64,000 nucleotides of DNA from Cyanidioschyzon merolae (GCA_000091205.1 AP006492.2); one strand, 5' to 3'. Counted from the stretch's first letter, positions 6,071 to 57,847 are shown. Notes: generated from the letters alone by a model not told the origin. Made by a program: numbers and translations.

Positions 6071-6808
6071 CAGACGTTCTGGATTGATGGATCGTACCAT
6101 ACGATTGCCTTGATCCAGATGGGAATGCGAGACCGCCTCTCTTCTGGTCGCTGATATTGTTTCATCGAAAGTCTTCAGCGTTTCAGGACGAAGCGAATAC
6201 TGAAATTCAACGATTTCCTGGAGCGTTCTCTCGATGCAAAGGCGATGCAAGTTTCCACGGCGCGATACATAACCCGGATGTCGATTGACGCTTTGATTTC
6301 CTGGTTCGGAAAGCGGTTACCCGCATTATGGCTGCTGGGATCATTCCACAAAGTGCTTCTCAATATCGAGTGCCTTTCCATATGACGATCGGTTAGCGTA
6401 CCATGCAATATCGCGTGCTTCCGATGCTGTCTCATGCGCTGCTGCTCTACAAGCTTCAACTCGTACGAGTGCTCGTGATGCTAATATGTTGTCCTGAACG
6501 TATCGAATAACATCGATTCCAGCATTCGTTGTACGCTCTTTTCGAAAGAGCAGCAGTGCAGCTCCTGTCGGCTATAGCACTGTTTGCGCTATAACCTGCT
6601 TCGAAACGAGCCGACCTATCGGTCGTTTCCTTTTCCAACTCATTGAGACAGTTGGTGAAGGCGAGTTTCTTGCCTTTGTATTCCCGAAATTGTTGCTGAC
6701 TGCCCAGCGCGTTCTCATGTACTCTCTGAGAGAAGCATTCAAAGCATCAGACTCTGCTCAATACGGCGCTCAGGGTGTCGAGACGGGCTCTGACGCTGTC
6801 GTTCCACT
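6071..6808 (-). repeat. Dispersed repeat IR1, copy A (738 bp), inverted near-identical partner at 57110..57847
   Basis: The reverse complement of 6071..6808 matches 57110..57847 over the whole length with only a handful of mismatches. The encoded short ORFs differ by about 3 aa in total: ISITSTRTS vs ISIKSTRTS, AGNRF vs AGKRF, SRERSRK vs SSELSRK. Boundaries were read from where the flanking sequences diverge: agtggaacgacagcg...ccagaacgtctg. Confidence 0.85.
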
Positions 6809-8639
6809 AGTTGGTGTGCCCCGTGGCCTTTATCATGCTCGAATCCGGACAAAACAGCGCTCTCGAAAAACACAGGTCACATTGCATCCTGTGTCCCGAA
6901 AATCATTTATGTTGTCGCATGGGGTTTTTATCGAAAAGTTCCAGACGTTTGTGGACAGCTGATAGACCAGGGTCCGCAAATATTGCGAATCGTTGCATGT
7001 CGAGGTGCATCAAGGTGCGAGAAACCCGGTGAGACTTTCTCGAGTTCGAAGCTCTGCGACCTCTCAAGGCGTGCTAAATCTTTTTGCTGTCACAAATGCG
7101 AACGACTAGCCTATGGACACGGTAGCGTCACACTTGCGTTTGCCAACAGAGATGACGCTTTCGACTGGATTCAGCCAGAGAGAATAACTCGGCAAGAAGA
7201 GCAGCGCAACGCCATTCGCAGTTGCGTGCTCCTCGACCGCTGCCGAGTGATGGACAACGACGTTGTCTAACACCAGGACAGAAGCGTGCAGGATGGAGAC
7301 GCCATAAAGTGCTTCGACGAAGGATGAGGTGTTGAAGGACTCTGTCTGATCGGCGATTTCCAAGCGACCGAACGACTGAATCACTGCTCGGAGTGGTGTG
7401 TTCCGAGCGGTCGTTCGTCTCCTCTTGACGAATCGCCATATACCCACTTTAAGTAATATAATGCAGGTCTACCATTGCTCCAGAATAAAGTCTCATCGAG
7501 CGAGACGAGCACCGCTGTTGTACGCGCTTGCGTTTCAGTACCAAATGAAAAATGTGTTGTTCTATGCGCGAAAGGCTCACACAGAACTCGTCATTTTTCT
7601 CTGTGTATTCCGTGTCTAATCATCCTTGCTGGCGTTGACGGTATGGTAATCTCAAATCTTGTGGCCTCTTTGATGGGATATCTTGCAGAATTCACAGAAT
7701 GGAATCAATCGACGAGAAGAGATTCCCCCCGACAGAGATTCATAAGATTTGTTCTGTTTGTACGACATTAAGGATGAGGACCACAAGAACGGCTGTTTAT
7801 ACACCAGCTAATCATAAAATAACAGACTCGTCCAATTCATTTTCTGAAGCTGGCGATGAAGGCTTCAAGTTCTTTCGCGGGCATGTACCAATCTTCCAGC
7901 TGCGTTCTGTCTGTTGAATACCTGCAAGAACAACGAACAAGAATAAAAACACGATGCTGGAATAAGTATTCTAGAATGCACAGCTCCAAGTTCGACGCCC
8001 AGAAAAACAAAACTTTTGCGTGCAGATAGCTCGGTTTCACACGCTGCACGCTGCGTCCGGGCCCCGGAACAGAGCAGCTTGTCGTGTTGTGCACAGCAGT
8101 TGCGGTATGGGTTGCTGGATGTTGAACTCTGCGGCTGGAGCGCACGACCGCGGGACGTTAGCCTCTGCGATGCTGCGTCTAGACCCAGAGCGCGGGCATT
8201 GCTTGACAAGTGCGAGGCGGTGGGACCACGAACTGGAAAAATTCTCGAATACTGCTGTGCGGTAGCGTGTGTGGACGCGCAGGCCAGGAGGTTCTTCTCG
8301 ACCGGCGGCCAGCGCGTCGACGCTTATCGCAGCACCGAGCCCGAATGACGAGATGAATCCCTGTTCTCGTTGACACTCGGAGCTCTCGGTCGGCAAGGTT
8401 GTTTACCGTTGAGCTAGAGCAGCGCAGAAGCGTCTCTCGGGATGACGCCCTGTTTGCAGCACGGCTGCCAGGAACGTAATGGCGGGATACTTTACACCGT
8501 ATCCGGGTGTCACCTAGGTCAACGGATGACGGTATCAGCGGCGATCGTATCGCAAGGCGAAAACTCAGTAGCCTCTACAGCGATATTCTCAGTGAAACAG
8601 AAAATGACCCACGGCCACGGAGTATGAGTATTTATACCC

Positions 8640-9640
8640 ACCTGCAGACGTCTCCCAGTCTTTGTCGACCGGCCGCCTGCCATCGGCTTCAGTTTCTCTT
8701 TGTACACTTCGAACATGGGAGGCTATCCCAGGAATTTGAATGGTGTCAGCTCCCAGGGTCCCGTCTTCAGCACCGCACATCGTCTGGTATGGATGGCGGC
8801 ATCCAAGTCTCGATTCACGAAGTCCATGCGTCTACTGACATTGGTGGAGCTCATCAGTGCAAAGAGTCCACGAACTCGGGCCCTCTGTGCCATTTGGTGC
8901 AGTGCCAGCTCTCCGTGTTTTTCTCTTGCCGAAGCGCTCGGCTGCGCTCTCTCCATCTCGACCTTCTGTAATGGACACCCCAGCGCATCCATTAGATTCC
9001 CTACTTTTGAAAATGAATGCACTTGTTTATGCGCTTAGATGAGGAACCTCCCAGAGCGAGACGGCCTCGTACAAGAGAGGCGACATGTGCCTGGGTGTCA
9101 TCATGTGCTGAACGCTTCAGCGATTCGCTCAGTGCAGCGATCACTACTTTTCAGGATACAAAAATACTCCTTCGGCATGCTTGAACCACGAAGAGAAAGG
9201 AGGAATGAAAAGCATCTTTACCCCCATGGCATTTGCAAAGGCTCGAACGCGAGTAGAATGGTGGACTGCCACGTTGTCGAACACAGGAACGTCGCCAAGC
9301 GTCAGGGAAAGGTCTTCGATGATTCGACCGAGTGCTTGGTGCTGTTATATGAGCCTTCTCTACGAGCGAAGCTGAGGGCGCCGAATGAATCCAATGCACT
9401 TAGAACAGATGATGATATCATCGTTCTCTTCGGCTTCGATTTTACATACTACGTGCTCCCTGTTCCCCGAATACCCAAATACGCTCCGACCGTTTCGTCC
9501 GAGGCGATTCTGAATATCTGAAAAAAAGACGGACATGCCTAAGTTTTATAACGATCGCAAAGATCCAGAAATGCTGTAAGAGTTGCGATTTCGGTGGCAG
9601 ATGTATATGCTTGGACTAGGACTTTTTATTGCGACTGAAT
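8640..9640 (+). repeat. Dispersed repeat R2, copy A (about 1 kb), diverged partner at 55998..56845
   Basis: Nucleotide and ORF-level similarity to 55998..56845 in the same orientation. Examples: SMRLLTLVELISAKSPRTRALCAIWC vs SMRLLLLMELTVSRNPRTRALCAVCC, and on the other strand AQRARVRGLFALMSSTNVSRRMDFVNR vs the copy-B equivalent. The conserved blocks catccattag..ttttgaaaatgaatgcactt and ttgcgactgaatc are present in both copies. Coding potential is broken by frameshifts. Confidence 0.6.
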
Positions 9641-10593
9641 CGCAGTGTTTTCAGCACTTTGCCAATAAGCTGTTGAGTGACAGAGACACACCTAGTTGCT
9701 ACTATCGTAGCTTTTGCTTTCTCTAAAGTGATCAATGGATCGTTTTCTACCATTGCCCGCAAACAAGCTTTGAGAATATCGGTTTCTGGCGCGGAGCGCC
9801 TCTACTCGTTTCTTTCAGTCTTCCTCAATCATCTGAGCATTGTACCATGTCTGGCCTTACTGAGGAATGCAGTCCTCGTTGCGCTGTTCAGTAAAGTATA
9901 TATATCCTCCAGGCAATTCGTCATCTATCTACACGGCACATTGCGTATTTTCTTCGATCTGCAGTTACTCTCCGCATCGGGGGTAAACCGAAAATCGAGA
10001 TGAAACGCAATCAGGGCGTGCATCGGCAGTCCATGGAAGTATTCCTGCAGTGCTCATCATAGAGTGCTGTCAGGAACCGTTTCCAGATCGCCTGGACAAC
10101 TTCAAAGCATCCCATAACTTGAAATGGTCATGCAGGTAGACGCTCTTGTGGTATCGTGCTTCCTTTCAAGTACGATCCCAGCGTAAGGGTCCCCAGACAC
10201 GAGCGCGACATGAAACGCGATCAATTCTGCCCCAAGTTTTGAAACCTAAAACCCGTGCATACCGAGTCCATGCCTCGTGTGTTGTGAAACACGAGTCCCT
10301 GAATGCTGAGCGTCGTTTCTGGACCCGCTGGCATGCCGGCTGGCGAACGACGCAACAAGGTACTCGACGGCGTCTTGGAGCCAGTGAAAAGGACACAGCG
10401 ACTTGCACGCGAAACCGGCATCGATTGAGGCCAGATACAGCTATCTTGGGGGTGGCAGGGTGTCGGTCCTCGTCACGCAACCGGCGTCGAGAGTCCAACA
10501 ATAAACGCTTTAGCGGAGACTGAAACTGTGCCCTCGGGGAGTTGTTTGTACCCAATCGGTTGGAACTCGAAAAACCAGGCGGTTGGTTTGATC

Positions 10594-12800: not shown

Positions 12801-13559
12801 GCACTGGCAAAAGTTTTGATAGACGTTTCGCCTCCCATTTCCATCCCGTTTGGACACAACCTCGGCGCTTTTTTCACAAATGTCGCTATGGACTTGGCTT
12901 AGACCTTTTCAAATGCCTATAATATCTTCTGGTTCGAGCACCGCGTTGCAGTGTTTGAATGCTTGCTGTACCGTTCGGTGCATGCCCTGAACCTGTGCGG
13001 AATGCTCCAGCCGATGATCTTGTACGTTTCCGTGCCCGGTGCCGTACGCAACGATCGCAACCTTCATCAGGGCGCTCCTACAAGCAAAGTAGTCTTTCAG
13101 ATGCACACAGAAGCACACGCCGCTCCATTCCGTACAGATTTCGGGGAACACGACCTTGTCCATGATGAAACTAGTCCCGGAAAGTTAATGCAGGTTAGAA
13201 ATCATGTCGACAAATTTCTACCCGTCTCGGCTCCGTTCGTACAAAGCGGGGTGTCTCTCTCTCCACGGGAAGCGATTGCTTCAATGACTAAAGACGGAGT
13301 TCAAGACCCTATTCCACGCGTACAGGTGAGACAAGAGCCTCTGAGAGCGCAAAACGTCTGAGATACCGTGCTGCTGTTGAATGCCTCGCCTCCAGTAGCC
13401 TCAAAGCTATTAGGATCTGTCTTTCGAACGAGACCCATTATTTGACCCAACAATAGCAGTTTACTTTAAAAAAAAGCTTGGGAAGAGGTCGTCAAAGGTC
13501 GATGACGTGCAACTTTCATCGTCCGTCGATTGGTGCGAATTGCCACGCCTACGACTCAC

Positions 13560-13680
13560 CGTGAAACAGAAATATTGAAAACCTGAAGATTTCGTTATCG
13601 AGTCGTGATATGCCTAGGGAAAGGAGAAAATTGATGGCCATACCTACGACTTGGATAATGATTTCGATTATTTTACGCAC
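13560..13680 (+). repeat. Short dispersed repeat family R4 (about 120 bp), copy 1 of 3
   Basis: gaaacagaaatattgaaaacctgaag...ggataatgatttcgattatt aligns with 18710..18830 (gaaacagaaagcttgaaaacctgaag...ggatagcgatatcggttatt) and with 52265..52375 (ggaaacttgaagcttgcgtga...gggtaatgatatcggttatg). Confidence 0.55.
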
Positions 13681-15970: not shown

Positions 15971-16159
15971 GCGACCCGTGGGCATGGCGATGCGTAGTAG
16001 GTCGGGATTTCCAGGCGGTCACAGACCAGCCCGCGTCGGCTATTCGTAAACATCGATATGGTGGCTTTCGTTCGCACGTTGTGACTGGAGAGCGCGCTTC
16101 TGCGCGGTGCGCCAATGCTCGCCCTGGACCACGGGTCGGTCAAGATTCCGGGAACCCGT

Positions 16160-17473: not shown

Positions 17474-18709
17474 CAACGAGTTTGTGTGTCAGCAAGTGTG
17501 GCCTTCGCATGCGCAGAATGCCAGCACTGCGAAACGCGTAGACGGTTGGCGGTAGCGCGGCCCTGTCGACGCGTCCATATTGAGCGGCACGGATGGCAAA
17601 CGCGTCTCTGGCGCCCGATACGTTCCTAGGAGGGCGGAAAACCCCCGATCATGCACGACGACTAGGTTACGCAAGAGCTCGAGTTACCTGCTCCATCAGT
17701 ATCAGCATAAAAGGAAATAGTTGCTCTAAATCGGGTGCGGGATCTAAAGTTATGGTTTCGTTTCAAGATCATCAACAATTGCGTTGCGGGCTTGCTCTGC
17801 AACTGCTTCCTTTGCTTCGCGCTCGTATTTGCGGCCTTACGGGTAGCGATCGATCGTTTCGCTCGAGCTTGGTAGTCAGCAGCGCAAGGGATTCGATGAC
17901 AGGGTTAAAGTCCCGATTGCTGTGCATCCAGCTGTTGTCGAAGCGTTTCAAGCACAGGCGGTAGTTACAATCGATGCATCGTCTCCTTTTTACATGGTGT
18001 TTGCATAGAGCCTTGATGTGCGCTTCGCAGCGATGACATTAGGCCATAGTCGGACGTTCCATTATGTTCATGAAAGGCATGCCTCCGAGTGAGGCCTTGT
18101 CGCACTCGAGGACTCGCTTCAGTGCCTGGTGCATGCCGTTGCCAGTTATGGAACGCTGCTCTTGATGCCCTCCACCGTTTCCGCGCGTGCTCGCTGCGGT
18201 ACCCTGCGAACACGGGCCTCTTCTGGGTGATTGTCTCCGCATGAGCACTTTGATCGCTGCAAGTACGGGTGCTTGCTGTTTCACTCGATAGCGGATTTAT
18301 GGAACGGAATGTTGTCCATAATGAGACACGTTCTGGAAGTATAATCCAGACTGCGGAACAAGTGCAGAGATTTCGAAGCGTCGACGTCCGCATCATGCAG
18401 AGCTTTGACGCACTCGCCACTAGAAGCGATCGCTGGGAGGACTGGAGCTCGAGCCCAAGACCCTTTTCCGTGCACACAGAGGATACGGAGGCCTCTGAGA
18501 GCGAATCCCGCAAGAGGTATCATGCTGGTATCGAAGTCCCTTAGGTCGATCGCCATTGAAGCGGATTTGCTTCACGGATGGAACAGATTATTTGATGTGA
18601 CAAGGTCAGTGAAGTTTCAGCATGAACGTGTGTGAAGCATTCATCGGTGGATGGCGCCTTGTATTGCGTGATAAAGCCAGCGGGGCGTATTCCTGCACCC
18701 ACGAGTTGC

Positions 18710-18830
18710 CTCGAAACAGAAAGCTTGAAAACCTGAAGTATGCGTGACTTGAGCATGGTGCGTGCAGAACGAAAAGGAAGCGCCAAGGCTAGTACTTGGG
18801 CATTGGATAGCGATATCGGTTATTTCAGCA
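18710..18830 (+). repeat. Short dispersed repeat family R4, copy 2 of 3
   Basis: See the 13560..13680 entry. The 5' block gaaacagaaagcttgaaaacctgaagtatgcgtgacttgagc and the 3' block ggatagcgatatcggttatttcagc are conserved. Confidence 0.55.
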
Positions 18831-21195: not shown

Positions 21196-21978
21196 CTAGT
21201 CCTTGGTATCGACCTCCCGAGCCTCGACGTTGATCACTGCACTCCGTGCGTCCTCACTCAAAACAAAATTGCCGTTTTTCTCCACAAGAATACGTTGCGT
21301 ACAGGACGGACAACGGAACTCCTTACCCACAAGGCCAGTCACAGGGAAACGGCAGTTCGGACAAGTCCCTTCACGCACGTTCGCCGCTATCCACCAGCGC
21401 AGTACGAGCGCCCCGACAACAGGAGCGATGCTCAGCAGCGCAAATAGAATGAGAAACGAATCGAAGATTACCCCGATGCGACCGCTGAACACCAGCCACA
21501 CAAGGATCGCCCAGACAACAAGCTGTCCCTGTGCAGAGGAAAGCCAACGTGAAGCGCGAATCAGTGCACTATCCCAATCGAACAGCGGACCACGGCGCTT
21601 CTGCTGGCCCACCAGACTACGTACTCCAGCGTTGCCGCTTTTGCGGAGGTGTGCCCGGCCAGAGCCGGCGGCAAGCGCTGCTTCCCGCTGTTGCCTCCAG
21701 GTGCACGGGTTGATGCGAACCGCACGGCACCAAGCACCTACGCGACGATCTGCTAGTCGATGCCGGTCCTCGGTTCTCGAGTAGCTCCCTCTCGCCTCAA
21801 AACTTGTGGAGTGAAGCGAGCACTCTACCGGAACCAACCAACAAGAAGAAGGTTTGCGACGCATATCCGAGCCTCGTGCAACTGGTACACGTTTCCACCG
21901 AGCGTCGTGCGGCGAGCAACGGGATCGACCCTGAGCGCGCCTCGCCGCCTCCACGATGCTGCTGGATACTTGTTGCAT
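21196..21978 (-). CDS. Hypothetical membrane protein with two predicted TM helices and a C-terminal CxxC-x13-CxxC zinc-ribbon
   Basis: The C-terminal 130 aa read LVVWAILVWLVFSGRIGVIFDSFLILFALLSIAPVVGALVLRWWIAANVREGTCPNCRFPVTGLVGKEFRCPSCTQRILVEKNGNF. That is two hydrophobic helices followed by a zinc-ribbon-like Cys4 motif. The N-terminal 130 aa is R/S-rich low complexity and may not be coding. There is no firm family assignment; the topology loosely recalls PGRL1-like proteins. Confidence 0.3.
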   Translation of the reverse strand: MQQVSSSIVEAARRAQGRSRCSPHDARWKRVPVARGSDMRRKPSSCWLVPVECSLHSTSFEARGSYSRTEDRHRLADRRVGAWCRAVRINPCTWRQQREAALAAGSGRAHLRKSGNAGVRSLVGQQKRRGPLFDWDSALIRASRWLSSAQGQLVVWAILVWLVFSGRIGVIFDSFLILFALLSIAPVVGALVLRWWIAANVREGTCPNCRFPVTGLVGKEFRCPSCTQRILVEKNGNFVLSEDARSAVINVEAREVDTKD

Positions 21979-22313
21979 GTTGTGACTCGCAGTAGGATGC
22001 TTATTCGTTTAAATGTTTGCATCCCGGGAGCTAGATGCCTGTTGCATGTTGTGACTCGCAGTAGGATGCTTATTCGTTTAAATGTTTGCATCCCGGGAGC
22101 TAGATGCCTGTTGCATGTTGTGACTCGCAGTAGGATGCTTATTCGTTTAACGGTTTGCATCCCGGGAGCTAGATGCCTGTTGCATGTTGTGACTCGCAGT
22201 AGGATGCTTATTCGTTTAACGGTTTGCATCCCGGGAGCTAGATGCCTGTTGCATGTTGTGACTCGCAGTAGGATGCTTATTCGTTTAACGGTTTGCATCC
22301 CGGGAGACAAATG
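21960..22313. repeat. Tandem minisatellite, 69-bp unit x about 5
   Basis: The unit ttgcatgttgtgactcgcagtaggatgcttattcgtttaa(a/c)(t/g)gtttgcatcccgggagctagatgcctg begins at 21973, 22042, 22111, 22180 and 22249, an exact 69-bp period. Copies 1-2 carry aaatg and copies 3-5 carry aacgg. Because 69 is a multiple of 3, long ORFs stay open on both strands across the array. Confidence 0.9.
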
Positions 22314-23098
22314 GACGTTCCGATGTTTAAGCAGTAGCACGCTGTGGTATTCGAATTCACGGACTCAGACGATCGAGTGGTACGAAACGCCGTGCGTGAG
22401 GAATTTGGGTTGCGTCTCTGGCTGTCCACAGCGTTGCAGCGCTTCGTGTATGTGATGCGAACGACCGCGAAGCGCGCAAGCTCTGAAGCTGGGTACTAGT
22501 GTCGTCAGGGAGAGGCGATGAAAAAAGGTTAAGTATGTAGGAGCGCTCGCGAGCTGCCCTACGTCATCACGAATATGCACCAGGCGACATGGAGCGCTCG
22601 CTGCAATCGCAAGGCGCCTCTTGAACGCTGGAGGCGGCCGTTGACCACGAGGGCACGATGTTTCGCTGGCAACTCGAAACATAGGAACACTTCACGCGCA
22701 AACCATGGAAAGCGAGAACTCATTGCGTGCCAGAGCGATCGCCTCCAGCAGCGAAAGGAGCAGCGAGAACCCTAGCCGACTGTTCCCAGACGCGACACTC
22801 GTCTGGTGCCTTTGCTGCTCAGTAAACGAGCGTGCCACCTGGTCGACAGCGCTCAGGCGAAAGCGCTCTGTACACTGGTTAGGAGAGCATCTAAAACTCG
22901 CATAACTCTGAATCTATCGAATCCTTCGCATCTAAGTAGAAACGTACCCATAAACGTCTTCGCTTTTGCAGCACAAACCCGTGAACGAACACCCTCCATG
23001 TCGTCGACATAGGTTGTCGACTATGGCTGTGCGCAGCGCATTCACCGGTCTAGTGGTGGAACTTGCTGCGCAAGAAGTTGCGAGCTCTCTGGAGCGGC

Positions 23099-27228: not shown

Positions 27229-28904
27229 ATTTAGGTCGCTTTACAAGTCTGCAAGCACCGTCGCCAACAGCACACAAAACAGCAGTTAACAGAAAGAAAG
27301 AATGAATGAATGAATGAACGATGCGATGCCAAGCGCGCCTGCGTTGTACTCAGTGTCTAGGGCGCAGCGGATGCGACGCACAGGTCGCTAGCGGCGCGCG
27401 TCTGGGCATCGAGTAGCGAGCCGACGCCCGCTGGGACATGGGAAAGCCGTACTTTCTCCGTTCTATGAGTGCACCAGCGCTCTAGTCGCTATCGCGGACG
27501 ATTAGGACAGGTACTCTACACATGGTAGAACGTGTAAAGCGACCAGAATATTCGAGGAGACGTATGGGTGATGGGATTTGGAAGACGGGCGTAGATCGAT
27601 GGATGCTTTACCACGCGCTCATATCGAGCGCGCAGTCGGGTAAAGCTGGCCGATATAACCATTCTTTCAAATAAAAACTCTGGAACTCCAGCGCGACAGC
27701 GGGCGCCGCAAGCACCGATACTGCGCTTACGACATAAGAGTTGCCGTGGCGCGGGAACTCAAGCATCTTTCCGCCTAGGTTTGTATTCGGGGTATTCACT
27801 AGTTCGTTAGAGAGTAGTGGACCACAACTGGCGCTCGTCTAGTGGAGTCGTGTCAAATGAGAATGGAATTCTGAACTGCTTGCTCTGTTCCTGCCTTTCA
27901 GTTTTTTAGAGCTTCTTTCGGACGTACAAATTTGACCTTACAAGTGCATCAAAAAGAACTTACTGGTTCATGTTTAAGTCTAGAATGTTCGGTGGTGTTT
28001 CCGCGGGGTGGTGCATTCGACGCTTTGCCGCTGGCATCCGTGACTTTATGGTCATCAAGATGATTCACAACGCCATCGAACAACATTTCGTAAACTAACT
28101 GACTGCGTTATCCAATGCAAACAAGCAAGTCGCCACGCTTCGCCTCTCCTTACGTGTAGCATGCTCGAATCACAGATTCTCCAAGTTTTCGATTATTCTG
28201 TTCCCAAGTCGCTCGTTGGCGCGGCGATGCGCGCCGCTGTATAGACGATGAAATAGTCTCAAAGGTGTCACTGGCAGACTTATTCACAAGACACGTGGCA
28301 AAGGTTCATTTTACCGCCAATGTTCAATATTCGATGCGGTTCGAGGAAGAAATTCTCTAATCTACTTAGTAGTCGACGAAACGGTATCCCACACCAGCAT
28401 GATAGCTCTGACAGGATATGCTCCAGGAGACTCCTTGTTTCTTCTATTTGCATGCGAGAGGGCGTTGAAAGCGGACTTTCGTCATCGCAGCGATCGCTTC
28501 TAGTGGAGCGTGGGTCACCGCTTTCCACAAACGGGGCGTAGACGCATCGGGTGCGCTCGAATGCCTCGCCGACCTGAATTGCCCTTCCGATACGTTTTCC
28601 AGCAACGAAAACATCGCGTACCCCGAAGCCTCTATCGAGTAGAACAGCGCGCACTTAGAGTTGCACCAAACAGAATACTCTCCGGGGTATCGCTCAGACC
28701 AAGACCGCCATCGTGGCGTATGGTGGTTGACGCGGAAACCGGGGCAGCAAGGGTATCCCCCTGGACAAGTAAAAGGCATGTATCGAGCGATGGGGCAAGC
28801 GTTCACGACCCACAGGACGACGCTCGGAGTAGGAGGCGGAAGAGGTTCGCTTGAAATATGGTAAAACCGGAGCACGGCCAGGCGTCACCGCTGTGAAGGG
28901 CACG

Positions 28905-34131: not shown

Positions 34132-37100
34132 AACATCACTCACGCGGGTTCAAAAAATGCGATATCCCGAAGATGGGTATCGTGGCGTGATCTGGGCGAG
34201 CGCATGTTTTCGTCCGCAGTGCAGGCTCGACGCCAACCAACAGGCATCATCGTCGTGCACGTCACGGGCGACGCGGGTTGTAGCCCGCCATAAAGAGCAT
34301 GTTGTAGATGCACAGCAATTCGGGATAAGTTTGAGCCCTTGAGCGATCGATGAGAGGGGTCCGGTGGAGAAGGTCGCATCGCCAGTATCGAGACCCTGAG
34401 ACGAACGTGTCGCCCTGGTATCTGATGATCTGCTCTGTGTGGAGACGCTGGGAGGTTGGTTGGGCTGCGCGGTGTCTCTCTGAGGGCACGTCACCGAAGG
34501 CGGAGTCTGAAACGATCGCACAACGCTGCGTTTTCATGGATGCAAGACTAGTTTTCCCGGTGCTGGAGCGCGAATCCTAGGCTTGCTGACCGCTGCAAGT
34601 CACCGCGCTTGAACGCGTCCTGGTGCTTTCTCCAGCCCGAGAGGTTCCTGTGCAAGTACCCTGGAAGTAGCCCATAATGTTTGCCACACAACGGCACACA
34701 GCGATAGGTATCCAATATCGCATCCATATTCCGATCAATACTGATCGGCTTGGTGTTGTGCTTGTACCAGCAATGTTTCGATTCCATGAAGAACGTCGCG
34801 AGTTGCTTCTCAGGCGTGCAGGTGCAAGGTCGGCGCCCCGGTTAAATGCAATCCATGGCAACTATTGAGGTATGCGCAGTAATATGGAATCATGGAATAC
34901 CCGGATCGTTCATGAATTGTCCAAAACAATCCCTTCTGATGTACGTAAACGGTCCTGCAGCCTTTTTTGGATTGATGAAGCGTTCCATACCAGGGTCTTA
35001 TTCGAGCGAGGAATGCAATTTGCTCTCTTCTGGCCACTGATCTATGCTTATCCGAAGTTTTTAGCGTTTGAGCACGCAGCCCGAACTACGCACAAAACGA
35101 TATTCTCGAAGCTTCGCTTGGCTCTACGCCGCTGGTCGCTCCGAAAGAACGAGGCATTTCCGGTCGTTGACTGAGGTACTGGATCCTAGGTGCAGAGAGT
35201 GCCAGCGTGCATTATTGCTCGTGGAATCATCCCATAGCAAGCCTCTAACCCCTAAATTGCCTCGTTACGTGACGTTCGGTTCGCATCCTATACACCCTCT
35301 CGTGTATCTGTCTCTGGATGGATCTCTTGCTCCCTGCGATTTTTCAGCGTGCATCCGCGCCTGCGATGCGTGTTCGTCGATCTGAACTTTTCCATACAAA
35401 TTTGGTAGAACCGATACCTACACGATTTGTAAGCGCTCGATGAATGACATGGGTGCAGCGCCTGTGCGCTGCTGTTCGTCAAGCGTCATGGGCTTCCACC
35501 GAACGACGCAATCTATCGCGTGTTCCCTTGCGAACTCTTTGAAAAAATGGCCAATGCACGCTTCTAGTCTCAATCGAATCGAAACTGCTCGTAACCCAAG
35601 CTCCACTTCATGCATTCGTGCCAGAGATCGTCCCGCGTGAAAGAGCAAGACGCTCATGTATGCTCTGAACGAAACAAAGAATGCAGCACTCTCTGCACCA
35701 TGTGGTGCTCAGAGCATCGAAATGGATTCTGACGTCGTCATTCCACTTAATGGTATGCGTCCTGGCGTCCACCATTCCCGACGCTCGATAAGACCGATCC
35801 CCCCGAAAACTTATAGATCACATCGCATCTCTTGCCTCGAGCATCCGCTGGGATGTCGCACTAGGATTTGCTCAAAAAGTTCCGGTGGAATGCGAACAGC
35901 TGGGTGCCCTGCATCCAGGGCTCGTCCGAGCAGTTGCTCGATGAGTTGTGTCAAGGCGAGGAAAGCTGGGCGAGCGCTCCTCAAGTAGGAGACGAAACCA
36001 TCCAAAATTGTACCTAGAAACTCGTTCTTTGAAAAATGCTCCCTGCTGGTCCGTTCTAGAGAGAAGGCCTTGACAACAGTTTCAGACTGATGTGTTCGCA
36101 ACGACACTTGATCGTCTTTGGCTTTCCTCATTCATTTTCACTGAGCATCTTGCTCTTCTTTGTCCGGCGATTTCTGCTCCCTCTCTTCAGATTGGCGGAT
36201 TGACGTGGATGTGATCGGTGTGACCCACATGCGTTCTTCCTCGGGATTCGGACACGCTGGGCGGACGGTGCCTCTAAACTCGCACTCTCGATGTACGTCA
36301 ATAATATTCCTCAAGTAAGTTTGTGTCTTCGTGCCCGACGCGAGCACGCTAGCGGTCTGAAGCGCGCCTCTCCGTTCCGCCCCCGTAGACGATCAGAGGA
36401 GCAAGGGAGCCCTGCTGGACTGGGGCAGGTAAAGAAAGACTCGCCAAAGAACGGTTCTACGGATGCGAACGACCCGCCGCTGGATTCTTTAGCATAGAAA
36501 TGGCATTTGACACCGGAGATGACGCTTTGGTCGGGTCTGTACCACGGAAAATAAGCTGGCATGCACAGCAACCTAACGAAAATTACAGCCTTGTTCTCTT
36601 TGACAGCCGTTGAGTCATGGAATGCGAAGATGTCTTAGACCGGAACGGAAGAACGCGGAACGGAACACCCACGTCGTAATGCGTCAGCGAAGAATGGGGT
36701 GCCAAACGATATCGTCCATTTAGTGAGATATGCAGGCGACCGTACAACGGCTACATCGCCAGGGCTGATTTGCTCGCCATGCTCGCTTATCTCTGCGTTA
36801 CGAACAGTTGCTCGCCCGTCATGAACTACCCTTGTATGGTTCAACCATTCCCCTCGACTACAGCCGCAGCGATTGAGACGATGTCCCGTGCCAGGTGGAA
36901 TACGTGCTCGCATCTCACGACGCGAACGATCGCGGGCTCCGCAATGCCCGACGCTCTCCGATAGAAGCGCGCTTTTTCTTTCCCATCTGAGTACTTTCAT
37001 CCCTGTGCGTATGGACGAGACGTAAGCGGCACATCCTATAGCTTCATTTGTAGTGTTTCGGAAAGAACGTATAGAGCGCAATAAATTGACTTCGAGACAT

Positions 37101-37580
37101 TCATTTCGACAGCGTTGGATATGTTCTCTCGTGGAGGCTTGGCACCCAGGATATGAACCACGGCATGCGTCATTCATCATCACCGTGCTGATCGTAGAAC
37201 GTCGGACGCTTTCATCTAATATGTTTTTCTGCAAGCAACTAGTCACAACGTAAAATCTTTCCGCAACCTCTCTCCAGTTCACATCGTACTTTTCTTTTAT
37301 TTTTTACCCTGGAAAAAATCAAACAAAGACGACAAATAAGATCTGGCACAGGTGTTCAAGAATCCGATCCCTCAAGTACCATACGCACGCTCGATACACA
37401 TCGAACGTGCTGCGAATGGAGTTTATTTGCATCGCACGGAAGCTCCGGGACGCCGTCGGCCGTGCTCGTGTTTGCACCAGAGGCCGCTGGGAAGCCCAAA
37501 ACGTCACCGAGTCTTAGTGGCAGTCACACGAGCACCGGTGGCAACTTTGAAGCAAATCTTTTATCAGTGATACGCTGACT

Positions 37581-37710
37581 GCACATGCACATGCACACGC
37601 ACATGCACACGCACACGCACATGCACATGCACATGCACATGCACACGCACATGCACACGCACATGCACACGCACACGCACACGCACACGCACACGCACAT
37701 GCACACGCAT
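37581..37710. repeat. Compound microsatellite (CACATG/CACACG)n, alternating purine-pyrimidine
   Basis: gcacatgcacatgcacacgcacatgcacacgcacacgc... runs for about 130 bp. It sits about 150 bp downstream of the stop of the minus-strand gene ending at 37859. It generates the spurious poly-(CV)/(HV) ORFs 37524..37706 and 37564..37797. Confidence 0.9.
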
Positions 37711-37858
37711 CAAGTGCGCGTCGCGGCCGCCAGTAGATCCTAGCCCTCGAGCCCTAAACGGCATACAGGGATGAATGCGCGTACCATCGAGGTACACGCA
37801 TCTGTCGACAGCTCATTCAACAAAGTGTGCTCATGGCTGCATGATTCATAGGCACATC

Positions 37859-40315: not shown

Positions 40316-40713
40316 TGGCCTCTCACAACAAAAGGGTAGCACGGGCTGTACGATAAAATGCCCACTGGCTAGTGTTCAGGGCGGCCAACGCAAGCGGCCC
40401 CGGTGCCGCTGGCTTCCGCAAAGCCAAGCGTTCTTCCGAACACACGCGCACCAGAAAGTGCCGTTCGCAAGCGTTCGTTGCTAACTTCCGTGACTTTTCT
40501 ACAGTCACTCAGTGATGGCAGGCTCGAAAAAGCCCACTGGAAAACTGCGGTTTCCGCGCGAGGCTGCACGCAACGGAGCTGAGCGTCGCAAGCAGTAGAG
40601 ACCGGCTACGTTGATTTGCAGCGTCTCGTGGCGATCGCCGAACACGCAGCGAATCTCGGGCTTTGCAGTTGGCTTGCGGAGGTTGGCGCGCTGCGCACAC
40701 GCCGAACGCCTGG

Positions 40714-40826: not shown

Positions 40827-43042
40827 GCGTCGGCACGCATCGGCAGGCTGGGTCGGATGCTGCTGTAAGGCATTGTATACACACGAGTCGTGATCTCCGT
40901 AGATGCGTACGGATGGTGATAATGGTAATGGTGATGATTCGCGGCGCTGGGCGGTCGTCGTGCGAATGAACCACTGCTGTCCTTGATGCTGTTAACGAAC
41001 GCGCACTCTGAGATCCGTGGTAAGACTGGACGACTCTTGAAGTTGAAGGAATTGCGGGTGGAAGGCCGATCGCCTGGGGCCCCAGACGCAACGTCGCTGC
41101 GCTGCTCTACATCCACGCCAGGCTAGAATGGGGAGCTTTTTCAAAGCAGCTTTGGTGTACAGTGCAAAGATTTCGATTATTCCGATAGTTATCAGAATCG
41201 ACTTTTCGGGATCTTTTTTCAATTGGTTTTCTTTCTGCTCCCCGTCTTTGAATACGCAGGTCTCTGCTATCAATCAAACACAATTATTGGCAGTGGCAGG
41301 GTATTGATGACAGCGTCATGGTCTAGATTTCGTTACTTGTCGCTGTTATGCTCAGACTTTTGATGTGCAGGTAAAAGTTGCGATGTGCGCTTCGTTCGCT
41401 ATGTTCATCTTGGTCGTAGACCGCCTTGGTGTGCGTTTCGCAGCGTGAAACTCAACTGCGTTCAGATAGTTGCATATGTGTGCGAGAACCCCTCCTATGA
41501 AGGTCACTATGTCATGCAAGAAAGCTTGCTTCATCGCTCGGCGCATGCCCCTCACGAGAATAGAAGGCCCGCTGTGATGCCCGGCTCCATTTTCGCGCTC
41601 GTTGCAGTACCTGACCGTGACCGGCTTCGGCTGAGCGATCCCTCGGCGAGTGCGGTGTCCGCTGCACGTGCAAGCGCATGCTGTTGGATTCAATGGGGGA
41701 TTTGTGGAGCGCCATGATGTTCTTGATCAGAAAGCACCAGCGGGATAATTCAGGATGGAAACCAAGTCGGGAAATTTCGATCCATTTACGCGTCCTTCTT
41801 CCAGAACGGTAACGAACTCTCCACCGGAGGCTATAGAGTCCGAGTAGAAAACCCTTTCCAAGCAAACGGAAGAGATAGCGAGCCTCTGGGAGCGTATCCT
41901 ATCAGGTTGTATGCTATGGGGGAATGCATTTTCGTCGATAGCTATTTAAAGAGGATGATTTATCTTTTCAAAGGCGCCGATTATATAGCGTGGCCAGTTG
42001 CGCGAGCGTTCCGCTTGAGCATGTGTAGAAGTTTTCAAGGGACGACGTCGAAGGCGTTTCGTCCCCAATCCAACGGTACGAGTTGCTGCGCCCAGAAGTT
42101 GCGTTGGAGCAGAAAAATACAACACTTAAAGAATGCGTGATTTGATTACTCCACACGTAAGGAACAGAGAAGCGTGGAGATTTTATTTATGAACCGGATA
42201 CTAATATCGGTTAGTTTACGGATCCTTGTTAAAGGGGGCGTCGCATATCACCTGGGTTCTCGAGGTGTCACGAATTTCAGCGACAGCGCGTCGAGCGAGC
42301 CACTCCGAAACAGCGCCAGAGAATCCAAAAACTACACACGAACCCGTAACATCTTATTACTGTACCTCGAGCGTCGAAGCACCACATCTGAGACCAGTGT
42401 CGGAAATAAATGCTAGGCCCAAACATGGGCACTACTCCCGTGCGCCATTTTCATCAGAGACGGATACAGTCGAGCGCGATCCAAGATGCCGCATCGGCTG
42501 CAAGTTGGCTGCGTTTGCCGGTGGAGCGTCAAGAACGTAAACATCAAGATATTCCTGGAACGCGCATGCGTCGCATACATCTCCGGGGAAACGGATGTCT
42601 TTCGAGTGCACCAGCACCAGGCAAGCTGAATATACCTTGGATCTTGGAGACTGGTGTGCTCAAAGTTGATAACTCCGTGCCACATGTGCTGTCATGCGCC
42701 ACGTGTGAGTCTGAGCTTTTCGTAGAGCATTTTATGCATACCGTCGGAGTGCTATGTCTATAGCATGTAGAGTGCTACTAAATCACGCTGTCGCAATCCA
42801 CTCACCAACAAGTAGTTTCGAGACATGTCTTACAATTCAGTTGCACTATGCCAAAGTTCTCACGTGCCAAAAACTCATAGCTAGCGACTGAGGTATTCTT
42901 GACAGACGGATCGACAGAGAGACCTAGTTTGCTATACGAGTGCGACTCACACCTTGAACCGTGTCTCGATCAAGGTTGGCACGGTTCGATGCAACTACCA
43001 ATCAAATGCACCGAATCATCATAGGGCGCGCGCGTGCAGCTG

Positions 43043-43280
43043 CGGCGATAGCCCGTGCAATAACAGGACGGCTCGCAGAAAAAGTACAGTTCTATACAAA
43101 TTGGCCATCGGCCGATGCCGGGCGGCGGCAGCCCGTGCAATTAATGGACGGCTCGCAGAAACTGCACACTTCTACACAAATTGGGTGTCGGCCAGTGCCG
43201 AGCCCTGCGGCCGTACCCTCGTGTGCGCCCAGACTGATGCCGAGATAGCGGCTGGTATCGCTGCTCGTGCCGGGCGGCTT
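43043..43280. repeat. Tandem repeat, about 80-bp unit x about 2.5, immediately upstream of the ABC-F gene
   Basis: gcccgtgcaataacaggacggctcgcagaaaaagtacagttctatacaaattggccatcggccgatgccgggcggc is followed by gcccgtgcaattaatggacggctcgcagaaactgcacacttctacacaaattgggtgtcggccagtgccgag, with an 80-bp period (gcccgtgcaa at 43051 and 43131). A partial third copy is gatagcggctggtatcgctgctcgtgccgggcggc. Confidence 0.75.
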
Positions 43281-47449: not shown

Positions 47450-48826
47450 TTGGGGAGTCCTTGACTACGACTCCCGACGCTGCCCGCCTGGAACGCTAGA
47501 GCGCCTCCGTGTGCCCTACGCAACGTTGCCTCGCACGGGTCCAGTGCTCGGCTGTGCTGTATGTGCTCAGACGCCAGGCACAGCAGGCGTCGCGTCCAAG
47601 GGTCCTCCCCGAGACCTCTGTAGCGTTTAAAGCTCAGTTTACCGAAGCGAAACAGACTTCGCAGCGATGGTGCCTATAACAGTGTTCAAAGAGACGCGTT
47701 TCCACCGTACCTGCAACGAGGTCGCATCCGACAACCTCCGTACATCCAGGGGAGTACTGACAAGCGCCTCCGTGTGCCGCACCGCGTCCCTAGCGTCGCG
47801 GCGATTTCTTTCGATGACAATGCGTTTCCGTGGATCAGGGATCCCGGCTTGCGGGATGGATGGGTATTGGCATTCGGGAGAGTTTCGATAATGCAGTGCA
47901 ATACTCCCGAGTTCCATGACCTGTTCTCGGGTGCACCGGTCGTTTTGTGGATTCTACGGTGCGCGGAGCAGCTGCATTACTGCACCCGCCTTGGTGCCTA
48001 AACCGCATGCGCGCATGCATCATGGTGAAAGAGCGGCTTTGCGGTACCAGTGGGAGCGTTGGCTCGAGGCGCTGGATCCATCAGTAGCAAGGCAGTGCCT
48101 GACGCAAAAGGGCGTCTTGCGAGCAACGCTCTCGCAGTGTATTCGCAAATGATGGCCTCGGTCACCGGCACTGCATGTCTTCGCGCGTTTGCAGCCGGTG
48201 AATATGCATGGAAATGGATGAGCGCGTATCTATCGATTTCTGGTGGGCCGAAACGTACACGATTTTCAGGGTACTCATCTATGCAGGCTTTCCAGTATAT
48301 TCTGAGAAGCTTTACAACGGGCGTGTTCTAGGTTTATGCTTTTGAGGTCATTAGGGAGCACGGAGTATCTAACACCCATTTGCAGAGCGGGAGGAGCGGA
48401 ACGTGGTGCACCTGTGTGTGTGCAGCTTTCGCCATTGGATCGAGATTTGTCGTTGCACCCAGATACGTAGCGCTGCTGCAGCGTTCTCTTTGATGACGTT
48501 AGGCGAATTCGCGCATCACGAGCGTGCTACTTATACCTGGAATGTCGTTGGCGGTGAACGACTTGTGCGCCGGCCGCGTCACTAACGCACTTTGCTGCTG
48601 CAGAACGTCACCTATACGCGCAGACGCTGCCTCCTCCTTGAATCTCTGGTCTATTTGCAGGAGTGACTCGGTGCGCTTGCTGCTCAGCACGCGTCGCTGG
48701 TGTCCGCCTCAACGATGCAGAAAGGACGCAGTTTGGACACTTCCTCTGACGTCTGAACACCGAGCGCTCTATCGAGGCACCATGGATCGCGGTCAAGCGC
48801 AACAGCTGCTTTCAGCATGTCATCGA

Positions 48827-49050
48827 GCGCACGGACTGCTTCTCTCATGCTATGTCTATTCGGGTACATGAACGTTGTGTACACTTCATCCAACTGTGGA
48901 GTGTGCGGACTGCTTCTCTCATGCTATGATCATTCGGGTACATGAACGTTGTGTGCACTTCATCCAAGTGTGGAGTGTGCGGACTGCTCGTCGCAACCTG
49001 TGATCATTCGGGTATGTGAACAATGCGGCTACGTCATCCAAGTCAGCCCA
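48827..49050. repeat. Tandem repeat, 74-bp unit x 3, upstream of the AspRS gene
   Basis: cggactgcttctctcatgctatg(t/a)(c/t)(t/c)attcgggtacatgaacgttgtgt(a/g)cacttcatccaa(c/g)tgtggagtgtg begins at about 48832, 48906 and 48980 (74-bp period). The third copy is diverged. Confidence 0.8.
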
Positions 49051-51167: not shown

Positions 51168-52264
51168 ACGAGCTGAATGTCACACTTGGATACGTCCGAG
51201 CGCACCCCGATTGGTGAGGCATTCGTGTGTGCGGCCTGGATGCGGTGCAGGAAGCGCTTTAAACGTACCGCTGTTCGAATATGCGGTCACTGTCATCGAC
51301 TCGGAATGTAGCGCTGCCGTTGGTAGCACGGATCGCTACAGCGTTTAGCGCAATTGCTTCGCTTGACGTTCAAAGCCGTCCCACAGAAAACAGTGCTAAT
51401 TCGAAGATCGCAGGCACAGGAGAGGAAGCTTTTCAGAGCGTGCGCGAGAAGAGCAAATTCTGCCTAGATTGATTCCAGTCCTTGTCGTGGTAGAGTCTCG
51501 AATAGCGCTCGGACTGCTGTGCACATTGTGTCCACAAGCAACGCTTCATAAAAGCCGAGTCAGTTCCGAGCACCTCACTCGCACGTATTGTGCGTGAGGT
51601 GGTTATCAGCGCGTTGGGCCAAGTTGAAAAGTCTGGCGGAGGTCGCTCGACTCCATGGGGTCAGGGGTTTTCGTGGCCGTCCATGTCCACCACTGCAGGT
51701 ACCCGTGCAACGCCGCATTGCATAGACATTGATTGTTCCGGTTTTGTGATGTTACATGGAACGTTCCAGTAGAACGGTACGAGTACACGGGCCGCTTCAA
51801 GGTGAAGGGAATCACCGCTTACCGACGAGTTTGGTCCGTGGCCAACTGAGTGAACGGGTGCCGCACACTGCACGCGTGTTCAGCGTCATGTGCCCTGTAG
51901 TACGGCACTGTGCAGACTTGAGCGCATGTGTGCAGTTTTTATCCAGTGCCGAAGTTTGAACGTCTCCATTACGAGCTCGATGGTGCGCGAAACCGCACCG
52001 TTGAGAAGCTGGTGCTTCCTGCCCTGCGGCGAGCTGCCTTCATCTACTTGATACAAGTACTATGCTGCTGTCGAGTACAGCTTTATGGATGATTGGAAGA
52101 GAGGAGCTTATTTCTTTCAAATGGACTCGTTAATCGTACTACGTGACAAGTACAGTGAGGTTCTCGATGAGCTTGTCAGCAAGTTGGCAAGAGACGACAT
52201 TGCGTATTCGCTTCCTTGTTAGAATAGCAGCCCGCATTGCTGCGTTCACTTGTCCCATGGACAC

Positions 52265-52375
52265 AGGAAGATCGGAAACTTGAAGCTTGCGTGATTTAAG
52301 CGCGTGAAATGTTAGCAAAGGAGAAGTGTGGATGCTTGTACGTATACATTGGGTAATGATATCGGTTATGTAACG
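52265..52375 (+). repeat. Short dispersed repeat family R4, copy 3 of 3
   Basis: See the 13560..13680 entry. This copy lies about 350 bp upstream of the COG4-like gene. Confidence 0.5.
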
Positions 52376-55363: not shown

Positions 55364-55997
55364 ACCAAGAGGCTACAGTGCGTTGCGAATGCATGGCTTA
55401 CGGGCGCATGCTCCACTGGTACTATCCTTGGCGAAGCTCGTTTTCAGCGATTCCATGGCCACTAGTCGACGCGGTGGTATCGAATATGTGGCAAGTGCCG
55501 AGACACACGACAAGAAACACGACCATTGGGAAACGCGTTCGGCAGACGCGAGCCTTTCCTGGCAATCACCCACGGGCACCGTTTCGACAGACGTGTTGGA
55601 GACGACGTCGGGTGTCGACCGTGTCGGTGTGCGGGCTAGCGACGTCCGAAGCAGCAACACGCTTTTTAGCGGACAGTCAGTTTTTGTTCATGGGCATTGC
55701 AGGCGCTGTGCGGTGGTATGTTCATGGGCCTCGCTGAGACGCAACGTCGATCCCGAATCGATGCCTGGTGTCTGGAATGAGGCTTCAACTCGTGCGTTCA
55801 CTAGACAGGTTTCGATATGCTCCAAAAGTGATATTCTACATGCTCGATATGATCTAGAGAACAGCGTACGTTGAAGATGCCTCGTATCACGAGTACATCT
55901 GCAACACACTTGGAATGTATTGCAGCTTTGTGATTCATTCAAAACACGGTCAGCAAAGCGAGAAAAGATTTCACGACTACGGAGTGTATATACACAT

Positions 55998-56845
55998 CCA
56001 CTCGCAGACGCCTCTCAGGTTTTTTTGAACGGCCGCCTGTTATCGGTATCAGTTTATCCTTTTGCAGATTGAGAGCCTCAGACGCTAATCTACACAGATG
56101 GATCGCGTCAGCTCAGCGGGTCTCGGCTTCAACAACGCACAACATCTGATACGAAAGGCAGTGTTGAATTCTCGGTTCATGAACTCCATGCGTCTATTAC
56201 TTCTGATGGAACTCACCGTTTCAAGGAATCCTCGAACTCGTGCCCTCTGTGCCGTTTGTTGCAGAGTCAGCTCTCAGAACTTTTCGATCGCCAAAGCGCG
56301 CCGATGTCTTCTCTTCATCTCGACTTTTTGAAGTGTACGCCCCGGCGCATCCATTAGGTTTCTTATTTTTGAAAATGAATGCACTTTTTTATGCTCATTG
56401 TGAAAACCTTCCTGGAGCGAGAAGGATTTGCGGAAGAAACACAAAGCAAGGGGAATGGTGAGATGTCACATTGTCCAATCGAAGTTTGTCGGTAGGCTTC
56501 AGGGGAAAAGTCTGCAATGCTTCGAAGAAGTGGTTGTTGCTGCTGTATAAGCCTTCTGGACGCGCGAAACTTAGGCTGCCAGATGAGTCCACTGCAGCTA
56601 GAACAGATGATGATGTCGTCGCTCTCCACGAATTCGATCGCATATACAACGGATTCCTTCTCCGCGAATACCCATATACGCTCCGACCGTTTCGTCTGGA
56701 GCAAATCTCATCAACTGAGAAAAAAAACGACGTCCCTGTGCTTCATACGGATGGCGACGTTCGAGGAACGTCAAAGCACCGATTTCCGTCCAAGATGGCC
56801 GTGGGTAAACTAGGAATCTTTTTTCGCGACTGAATCCCAACGTAC
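55998..56845 (+). repeat. Dispersed repeat R2, copy B
   Basis: See the 8640..9640 entry. It lies about 265 bp upstream of IR1 copy B. Confidence 0.6.
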
Positions 56846-57109
56846 TCAGGCCCGCACAAACGAGCTGTTTGAAAACCTAGGCCGGAGTAGAGCATCAGTC
56901 CTCTTTTTCAACCTTCCAAGGTAGATGAAGAGCTACGTTTCGTGGATGGCGTCGATCCCGAGCTGAAGGACCTGATCGCCGTCACCCTAGATGTATGTAA
57001 AATAGATGGTGGTAATGACGCTCAGTCAAGCAGATGAAACTGCTCAACTGTCCCAGGGTTCTATATTATCGAGAGCCGGGCATGACAGACGCCAGGAGGC
57101 ATTGCAACA

Positions 57110-57847
57110 AGTGGAACGACAGCGTCAGAGCCCTTCTCGACACCCTGAGCGCCGTATTGAGCAGAGTCTGATGCTTTGAATGCTTCTCTCAGAGAGTACA
57201 TGAGAACGCGCTGGGCAGTCAGCAACAATTTCGGGAATACAAAGGCAAGAAACTCGCCTTCACCAACTGTCTCAATGAGTTGGAAAAGGAAACGACCGAT
57301 AGGTCGGCTCGTTTCGAAGCAGGTTATAGCGCAAACAGTGCTATAGCCGACAGGAGCTGCACTGCTGCTCTTTCGAAAAGAGCGTACAACGAATGCTGGA
57401 ATCGATGCTATTCGATACGTTCAGGACAACATATTAGCATCAAGAGCACTCGTACGAGTTGAAGCTTGTAGAGCAGCAGCGCATGAGACAGCATCGGAAG
57501 CACGCGATATTGCATGGTACGCTAACCGATCGTCATATGGAAAGGCACTCGATATTGAGAAGCACTTTGTGGAATGATCCCAGCAGCCATAATGCGGGTA
57601 AGCGCTTTCCGAACCAGGAAATCAAAGCGTCAATCGACATCCGGGTCATGTATCGCGCCGTGGAAACTTGCATCGCCTTTGCATCGAGCGAACTCTCCAG
57701 GAAATCGTTGAATTTCAGTATTCGCTTCGTCCTGAAACGCTGAAGACTTTCGATGAAACAATATCAGCGACCAGAAGAGAGGCGGTATCGCATTCCCATC
57801 TGGATCAAGGCAATCGTATGGTACGATCCATCAATCCAGAACGTCTG
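57110..57847 (+). repeat. Dispersed repeat IR1, copy B (738 bp), inverted partner of 6071..6808
   Basis: See the 6071..6808 entry. It contains three short back-to-back ORFs in three frames (57280..57462, 57459..57743, 57668..) with no recognisable domain. Confidence 0.85.

Follow-up and report, generated by a model that had tools for sequence, protein, structure and literature searches.

Near-identical inverted 738-bp arms on chromosome 10 of Cyanidioschyzon merolae: a probable case of gene conversion between old transposon relics

Conversion from arm to arm of an inverted repeat (IR) is known from the palindromes of the human Y chromosome and from plastid IRs, in which a crossover inverts the spacer; there it keeps the inverted arms near-identical, and these either measure tens of kb to Mb and enclose short spacers or belong to circular genomes in which both isomers occur. 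Yeast Ty elements are an example of another such exchange, ectopic conversion between transposable element (TE) copies. The latter has also been described for dispersed copies of Alu (PMC8230782) and of Drosophila ISX (PMC4384637) and has been given a general treatment (PMC6598467), and the theory of concerted evolution in duplicated genes whose paralogues share polymorphism has been reviewed (PMC3924837). The locus that we set beside these systems is a pair of near-identical inverted 738-bp repeats, the left arm (L) and the right arm (R), in a stretch of 64,000 nt of chromosome 10 of C. merolae strain 10D (the window, which denotes the whole stretch that was analysed). The products of seven open reading frames in the window are identical to annotated 10D proteins (BAM80319-BAM80336). 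The nuclear genome of this model alga is among the simplest and poorest in repeats, and its natural recombination is little documented. The 10D genome is finished from telomere to telomere and clone-based, and was reported to hold 26 retrotransposons without long terminal repeats (LTRs), 8 transposase-related class II elements that are closest to bacterial transposases, and a WSV486-related interspersed element in 253 copies (PMC1955436). Two C. merolae repeats, the Fanzor1-carrying CMe-1A and TE-N2_CMe, were described as having neither terminal inverted repeats (TIRs) nor detectable target-site duplications (TSDs) (PMC3627910), and the 253-copy element is this CMe-1A family. No paper was found in the literature on the present repeat pair or on gene conversion among C. 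merolae repeats.

We found that the two arms are likely a single 738-bp stretch of two ancient, decayed transposon relics that has been homogenised by ectopic interlocus gene conversion. The arms, and a third old copy (C3) that was used as the outgroup, are as follows.

6071..6808, minus strand: L, the left arm, a high-identity (conversion) tract in the left relic, 730/738 identical to R
57110..57847, plus strand: R, the right arm, a high-identity tract in the right relic, 730/738 identical to L
34870..37363, minus strand: C3, the third old copy, with 439/732 (60%) identity to R in the core

MAFFT alignment of L and R gave 98.9% identity with 8 substitutions and no insertions or deletions (indels), which is above the 98% line that an earlier sequence-only reading of the window had drawn for its near-identical inverted copies. 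A repeat search and a BLASTN self-comparison found this to be the only long inverted pair in the window, both stretching it to 6071-6857 / 57061-57847 (787 nt, 97%) for no other reason than a weak similarity of the adjoining ~50 nt. When identical positions are counted per 50-nt window, the L-R values are 20, 12, 16 and 32 before the tract, 48-50 inside it with 49-50 in a run of 14 windows, 43 in the window right after these and then 21, 18 and 15, so that both edges of the tract are real, sharp identity steps. The accompanying statement that every other repeat family in the window is clearly diverged holds for the dispersed repeats, all of which are at or below 73%, but not for the 69-nt tandem units at 21961-22306, which are equally alike.

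The sequence on either side of the tract carries most of the argument. Four edges were compared without gaps and strictly in register, with binomial p values, and separate local-alignment shuffle tests were made.

6809..6862, minus strand: left upstream edge, homologous to R and C3 at old-copy divergence (L-R 34/54, L-C3 31/54)
57056..57109, plus strand: right upstream edge, where the family homology of R starts, 72-79% identical to C3 and 63% to L
57848..57935, plus strand: right downstream edge, with diverged homology to C3 and L; BLASTN to C3 reaches 57935
5991..6070, minus strand: left downstream edge, with diverged homology to C3 (L-C3 43/80); BLASTN to C3 reaches 6017

In the upstream 54 nt the matches are 34/54 for R-L (p=3.5e-8), 39/54 for R-C3 (p=5.9e-12) and 31/54 for L-C3 (p=2.5e-6), and in the downstream 80 nt they are 37/80 (p=1.8e-4), 44/80 (p=1.2e-7) and 43/80 (p=3.8e-7), respectively, which puts L-R identity at 63% upstream and 46% downstream. 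The shuffle tests gave z=20.8 for L-C3, z=13 for R-C3 and z=5.6 for R-L upstream, and z=7.1 for R-C3 downstream. On dividing the informative sites by pattern, the upstream edge has 13 sites where R agrees with C3, 5 where L does and 8 where R agrees with L (15, 17 and 10 in the downstream edge), against 4, 1 and 289 in the 738-bp core. The three copies are thus roughly equidistant in the edges, while in the core C3 stands apart from a matching L and R at nearly every such site. Since the right edge is nearer to C3 than to L, it cannot be a recent copy of L that mutated later. The high-identity tract is bounded on both sides by diverged homologous sequence, and a 99% interior within edges of 46-63% identity is the signature of gene conversion and not of a fresh insertion.

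The relics to which the arms belong could be traced outwards from the tract, and the following features are involved.

6017..7977, minus strand: the whole left relic, made of a transposase remnant and a ~0.9-kb downstream module that holds the arm, ~58% identical to C3
7109..7468, minus strand: frameshifted remnant of an IS630/Tc1-mariner-type DDE transposase, separated by 298 nt from the left arm, which lies downstream of it in element orientation
8589..9674, minus strand: B, a more distant transposase relic adjoining the left relic, 70-72% identical to 55950-56869 as a direct repeat
55950..56869, minus strand: B', the counterpart of B adjoining the right arm, 70-72% identical to B and not homogenised

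Sensitive self-BLASTN aligned 6017-7045 and 7096-7977 with 34904-35986 and 36463-37363 at ~58%, and self-BLASTN aligned R with its short extensions (57056-57935) to 35801-34870 of C3, the R-C3 core alignment having indels of 11, 33, 10, 2, 2, 1 and further nt. The open reading frame (ORF) at 7109-7447 on the minus strand matches Pfam DDE_3 (PF13358, E=2.3e-15, 57.1 bits against a cut-off of 28.6), and the 7109-7468 remnant also matches the NCBIfam IS630 family transposase NF033545 (E=7.8e-13) with 48.5 bits, which is under the curated cut-off of 100. The reading frames around the remnant are broken, and a protein search with it returned its own locus only and no intact family member. Within B, the segment 9147-9344 on the minus strand has a DDE_3 match just below the cut-off of 28.6 (E=3.8e-6, 27.3 bits) and is 45% identical to the 7109-7468 remnant over 49 aa (E=6.5e-11), and B' has a weak DDE_3 match at 56398-56742 on the minus strand (E=0.054); B and B' are further relics of the transposon superfamily of the arm relics. 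The 738-bp unit is not a complete element. It is a stretch from the interior of a repeat family that is old, non-coding and low in copy number, and this family is the downstream, non-coding part of decayed IS630/Tc1-mariner-type (Pfam DDE_3) elements. The locus shares with IS630/Tc1-mariner elements the transposase remnant of this type in the left relic, but differs in that the arm is neither a transposase nor a terminus and all copies are decayed. A search of L, C3 and R showed no recognisable TIR and no TA target duplication either, and the termini of the relics have probably decayed.

It had also been claimed that the unit lacks TIR, TSD and LTR features, and we agree, as only chance-level inverted matches of 14-21 nt came out of the TIR search; these features and termini are missing because the ends of the unit are the ends of a conversion tract and not of an element. 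The wider description as no recognisable LTR, TIR transposon or Helitron is right as far as LTR and TIR features go, but the unit is transposon-linked, with a DDE_3/IS630 relic 298 nt upstream of L and a diverged copy of the ~2-kb unit at 34870-37363. It may be noted that up to four IS630/Tc1-mariner-type relics lie in these 64 kb, all on the minus strand (7109-7468, 9147-9344, 56398-56742 and 36314-37363), with uneven support: the first is above the Pfam cut-off, the second just below it and the third weak, while the one in C3 is recognised by homology to the first only. Up to four such relics in one window, as opposed to 8 class II elements in the whole 16.5-Mb genome (PMC1955436), suggest that such elements spread locally or were copied with segments of chromosome 10, or else that they were undercounted.

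The arm is a non-coding relic, with nothing to mark the pair as protein-coding genes or pseudogenes. The mismatches of R against C3 fall equally on the three codon positions (0.408/0.395/0.402, p=0.97) with no 3-periodicity, and the indels between them are not multiples of three. Pfam searches of all arm ORFs on both strands gave no match, the codon-usage score singled out no coding frame in the arm, and relatives of the arm ORFs among 5.8 billion protein clusters came from the same loci only. The three short domain-less ORFs in three frames that the sequence-only reading had listed are indeed there, with 60, 94 and 67/169 aa and no Pfam domain. Rfam (gathering threshold) and ARAGORN tRNA scans of the whole window found nothing. 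For the arm strand that is antisense to the transposase direction (minus of 57110-57847, which is plus of 6071-6808) the predicted fold has z=-3.59, with 0 of 60 dinucleotide shuffles as stable, as against z of -0.85 to -1.7 for the other arm strand, the C3 homologue and control relic DNA.

To compare the arms between strains we used the many environmental Cyanidioschyzon contigs, 99.0-99.7% identical to 10D, that were gathered by exact-product look-ups and one DNA-pattern scan of Joint Genome Institute (JGI) metagenomes. NFU1, tried as an anchor for the left locus, had no exact product on record. Both arms sit at the same loci in the environmental strains, which are 0.5-0.9% diverged from 10D: 14 contigs from 14 samples bridge R into its own flanks, and two contigs (L011/L044 and L027) cover L with left-specific flanks. 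Short-read metagenome and Logan contigs that come in from the outer flanks (L001-L009, L012-L020) usually end exactly 141/127/121/30 nt inside the arm, the breaks falling at 6071-6211 in L and 57707-57847 in R; these stops are the k-1 of the assemblers, which is how a true two-copy repeat behaves in de Bruijn assemblies. A conserved 22-mer common to L, R and C3, GTATGGNACGNTNCATCAATCC, was met in the JGI metagenome scan in those three contexts only, apart from two unrelated chance matches, and each of the 20 contigs that carry the 68-aa arm ORF cluster belongs to L or R. The scan and the ORF-cluster census showed no young extra copies and no insertion polymorphism, both loci being occupied in all strains seen.

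The comparison of 17 arm sequences (the two 10D arms and 15 environmental ones, 2 L and 13 R, from independent metagenomes) gave 23 variable sites. At 57222, 57229, 57231 and 57325 both 10D arms have one base and 15/15 environmental arms another; the same split was seen at 57541 and 57560 in all but two sequences and, in the four contigs that were analysed first, at 57409 and 57418. A consistent separation of the loci is given by two sites only, 57134 and 57647. The paralogues within one genome are thus more alike than the orthologues between lineages (four uniform sites and four more in most arms, against two by locus), and whatever the ancestral state was, at least one transfer between the arms after the lineages split is required by this pattern. 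Sites 57222, 57229 and 57231 lie within 121 nt of the inner locus-specific flanks, and k-mers of 121-141 could tie them to their locus if the contigs were made with similar k. At 14 of the 23 variable sites the same two alleles occur at both loci, as compared with 2 fixed L/R differences, though short-read contigs may mix the arms. Also, bases private to L of 10D (57443 C, 57602 C and the T-C-C combination at 57409-57443) are found in R arms of other samples, again in unphased contigs. The shared-polymorphism pattern is in support of gene conversion in a supportive role only, and only the sites that are uniform in all environmental arms against both 10D arms are safe from arm mixing. When 10D is compared with the environmental strains, 28/1476 positions differ in the arms and 21/3763 in the adjacent neutral DNA (odds ratio 3.4, p=2e-5); this faster change of the arms fits old L/R differences that were fixed in opposite directions in different lineages.

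A separate observation concerns 57323-57328, where four substitutions occur in six nt (GTTATA vs CCCATG) in the 5′ arm of a hairpin.

57322-57348 in R and 6570-6596 in L: hairpin GGTTATAGCGCAAACAGTGCTATAGCC

The CCCATG state of some environmental R arms is that of C3, and the states of 10D and others make the hairpin more perfect. The cluster may be a templated quasi-palindrome mutation. C3 as its donor was considered and rejected as the chief explanation, C3 being just ~60% identical; that the ancestral state was kept, or that the hairpin templated the mutation, is more likely than donation by C3.

The orientation of the intervening 50 kb was read from the same contigs. All of the 14 R-bridging contigs (14 samples) have the COG4-side flank linked to the ChaC-side flank, which is the 10D arrangement, and none has it linked to the Omp85 side. 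The genes of the spacer that were checked (NDUFS2, ABC-F, COG4 and cytochrome c) are as the sequence-only reading had named them. The sister genus Cyanidiococcus keeps ChaC next to COG4, collinear with 10D, and the ChaC-COG4 spacer measures 1.1 kb in Cyanidiococcus yangmingshanensis (locus L032, 10669-11779) against 3.0 kb here (55364-58337), a size gap that nearly equals the 1,986-bp block of B' and the right relic with its arm. The 1.1-kb spacer has no detectable similarity to the relics; the relic block is probably absent from Cyanidiococcus, and B' together with the right relic may have been gained after the genera split. The copies could not be dated with Cyanidiococcus, as its coding DNA is just 60-70% identical. 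A crossover between the arms could in principle invert the 50 kb, but no such product was seen. The flip-flop inversion proposed in the sequence-only reading finds no backing in a single orientation across 14 bridging contigs and 10D, low-frequency isomers being beyond these data.

The data show the identity steps at both ends of the tract, the homology of the edges, the transposon ancestry, the two-copy state, the joint variation of the arms among strains and a single spacer orientation. The molecular route, the direction of each event and the origin of the first homogenisation are what we infer from these patterns, and they may be pictured as follows. Non-reciprocal homologous recombination (HR) would have replaced the 738 bp of one copy with the sequence of the other: one arm would break, invade the other arm and be repaired by copying from it, and the intermediate would be resolved without crossover. 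Once near-identical, the tract would remain a substrate for conversion in either direction, through repeated events that each cover a patch of it. Such a process has its setting in C. merolae, for which efficient homologous recombination in vegetative cells has been reported; there, plasmid-borne wild-type URA5.3 repaired a mutant genomic allele, which the authors credit to gene conversion, and chimeric markers were designed against it (PMC3764038).

Several points weigh against gene conversion as the explanation. Canonical HR needs near-identity, and the first homogenisation of copies that were perhaps 60-70% alike lacks an explanation. Conversion might have gone on without pause ever since the duplication, with decay of the edges narrowing the convertible tract from its ends, or one rare homeologous or microhomology-mediated/-primed repair event might have reset the tract. 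The B/B' pair is of similar age and has no converted tract, so homogenisation is not a general property of these relics. The two-copy state rests on metagenome contexts and one conserved 22-mer and not on the complete 10D assembly. Also, the interior of a 738-bp repeat is beyond the phasing reach of short-read contigs, and mixing by the assemblers may yield part of the shared-polymorphism and mosaic pattern.

Three causes had been offered for the pair in the sequence-only reading, and of these gene conversion is borne out by the old edges of 46-63% and by arms that changed together after the split from 10D, while the evidence speaks against a very recent duplication and an active element. A recent duplication or transposition of a young mobile or copied 738-bp segment would account for 98.9% identity without indels and for the sharp ends, and the lack of TIRs and TSDs is in itself shared with other C. 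merolae repeats in the literature (PMC3627910). Yet both sites held old family copies in register on both sides, which would not flank a fresh insertion in this way; the right edge is nearer to C3 than to L, and no TSD or TIR is seen. Moreover, there are two contexts and one old copy only, and the arms sit at the same loci in other strains and still co-vary, so we hold this origin to be improbable. An assembly artefact, in which one copy would be a duplicated or misplaced piece of the other, has nothing in its favour beyond the high identity. The source is finished and clone-based (PMC1955436), the arms have 8 arm-specific differences, and independent environmental assemblies place each arm in its own flanks, while others break k-1 nt in from both sides. 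The duplication or collapse artefact that had been held out as an alternative is thus argued against by independent contigs crossing each arm into its own flanks, and its probability is close to nil.

Two further readings concern what the pair might do. If it were a selected functional element, such as a structured antisense RNA or a regulatory or boundary element, with conversion as the means of its upkeep or strong purifying selection as the cause of the identity, the fold of one arm strand (z=-3.59, 0/60 shuffles as stable) would find a place; but the arms change faster than neighbouring neutral DNA, which is the opposite of purifying selection, they have no Rfam family, no coding signal and protein relatives from the same loci only, and C3 was free to diverge to 60% with many indels. 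We regard such an element as highly improbable. The stability of one strand and the 57323-57328 cluster might leave a small chance of a function of the tract, and our verdict is unchanged by this. Nor does the slim prospect that the homogenised inverted tract is maintained as a selected feature, whether as a strand-specific structured transcript, as a recombination or break hotspot or as an occasional inversion switch of the 50-kb housekeeping block in an otherwise nearly repeat-free genome, fare any better. Finally, the pair could act as a 50-kb inversion switch in the manner of organellar IRs, for which 738 inverted bp at 99% identity are a sufficient crossover substrate in an organism with active HR (PMC3764038). 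Against this flip-flop system, 14/14 bridging contigs are in the reference orientation, the ChaC-COG4 neighbourhood is kept in Cyanidiococcus, no recombinase gene is present and the transposase copies are all decayed, and we consider it a shade more doubtful still than a selected element. Gene conversion between old relics, which we favour, does not imply any function.

When set beside the described systems, the locus is a well-resolved case of a known process and not a new kind of element or mechanism. With ectopic conversion between TE copies it shares non-reciprocal copying between dispersed relics, a high-identity tract inside older, diverged homology, and paralogues in a genome that are more alike than orthologues between lineages. 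It differs in having just two partners and a 738-bp tract of about the full shared homology, and in being inverted, with 50 kb between the arms on one chromosome, in an extremely transposon-poor genome. As in the concerted evolution of duplicated genes, repeated exchange keeps divergence low and the same alleles appear to occur at both loci (14 shared vs 2 fixed), but the arms are non-coding relics without selection on a gene product, and the data are from unphased metagenome contigs. The suggested likeness to organellar IRs or palindrome arms is apt for the process, arm-to-arm conversion, and not for the structure, since the arms are of 0.7 kb, the 50-kb spacer is made of essential genes and one orientation is seen. 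CMe-1A and TE-N2_CMe (PMC3627910) likewise have no TIRs or detectable TSDs, and there too a short element can nearly equal part of a longer one; however, they occur in ~70-250 copies at ~80% to the consensus and the arm family in three contexts, the two being set apart by description only. The ORFs scanned held no TnpB/Fanzor-type domain.

The locus is a compact natural record of ectopic HR between dispersed repeats 50 kb apart, also after strains diverged. In C. merolae the arms offer a natural target pair for homology-directed constructs, a predictable break point of short-read assemblies and a ready assay locus for conversion versus crossover (inversion).

Other repeats were noted in the window. 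Dispersed families with 63-73% identity lie in intergenic regions (13532-13595, 18682-18745, 42075-42138 and 52229-52292), with further pairs in the same identity range at 17875-18535 vs 31045-31713 and at 27951-28204 vs 42106-42358. These intergenic repeats probably belong to the 253-copy WSV486/Fanzor1-related CMe-1A family, and the ORFs tested from them had no Pfam match. The remaining simple and tandem repeats are listed below.

21961-22382: tandem repeat of five 69-nt units, 93-97% alike, inside the ORF 21760-22455
48825-49046: tandem repeat of three 74-nt units
43042-43201: tandem repeat of two 80-nt units, just upstream of the ABC-F gene
37557-37727: (GCACAY)n microsatellite at the end of C3

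The old relic C3 is also directly adjoined by a gene at 37859-40342 on the minus strand, which codes for an 827-aa protein with a homeodomain (E=4e-13) and a C-terminal methyl-CpG-binding domain (E=2e-12).

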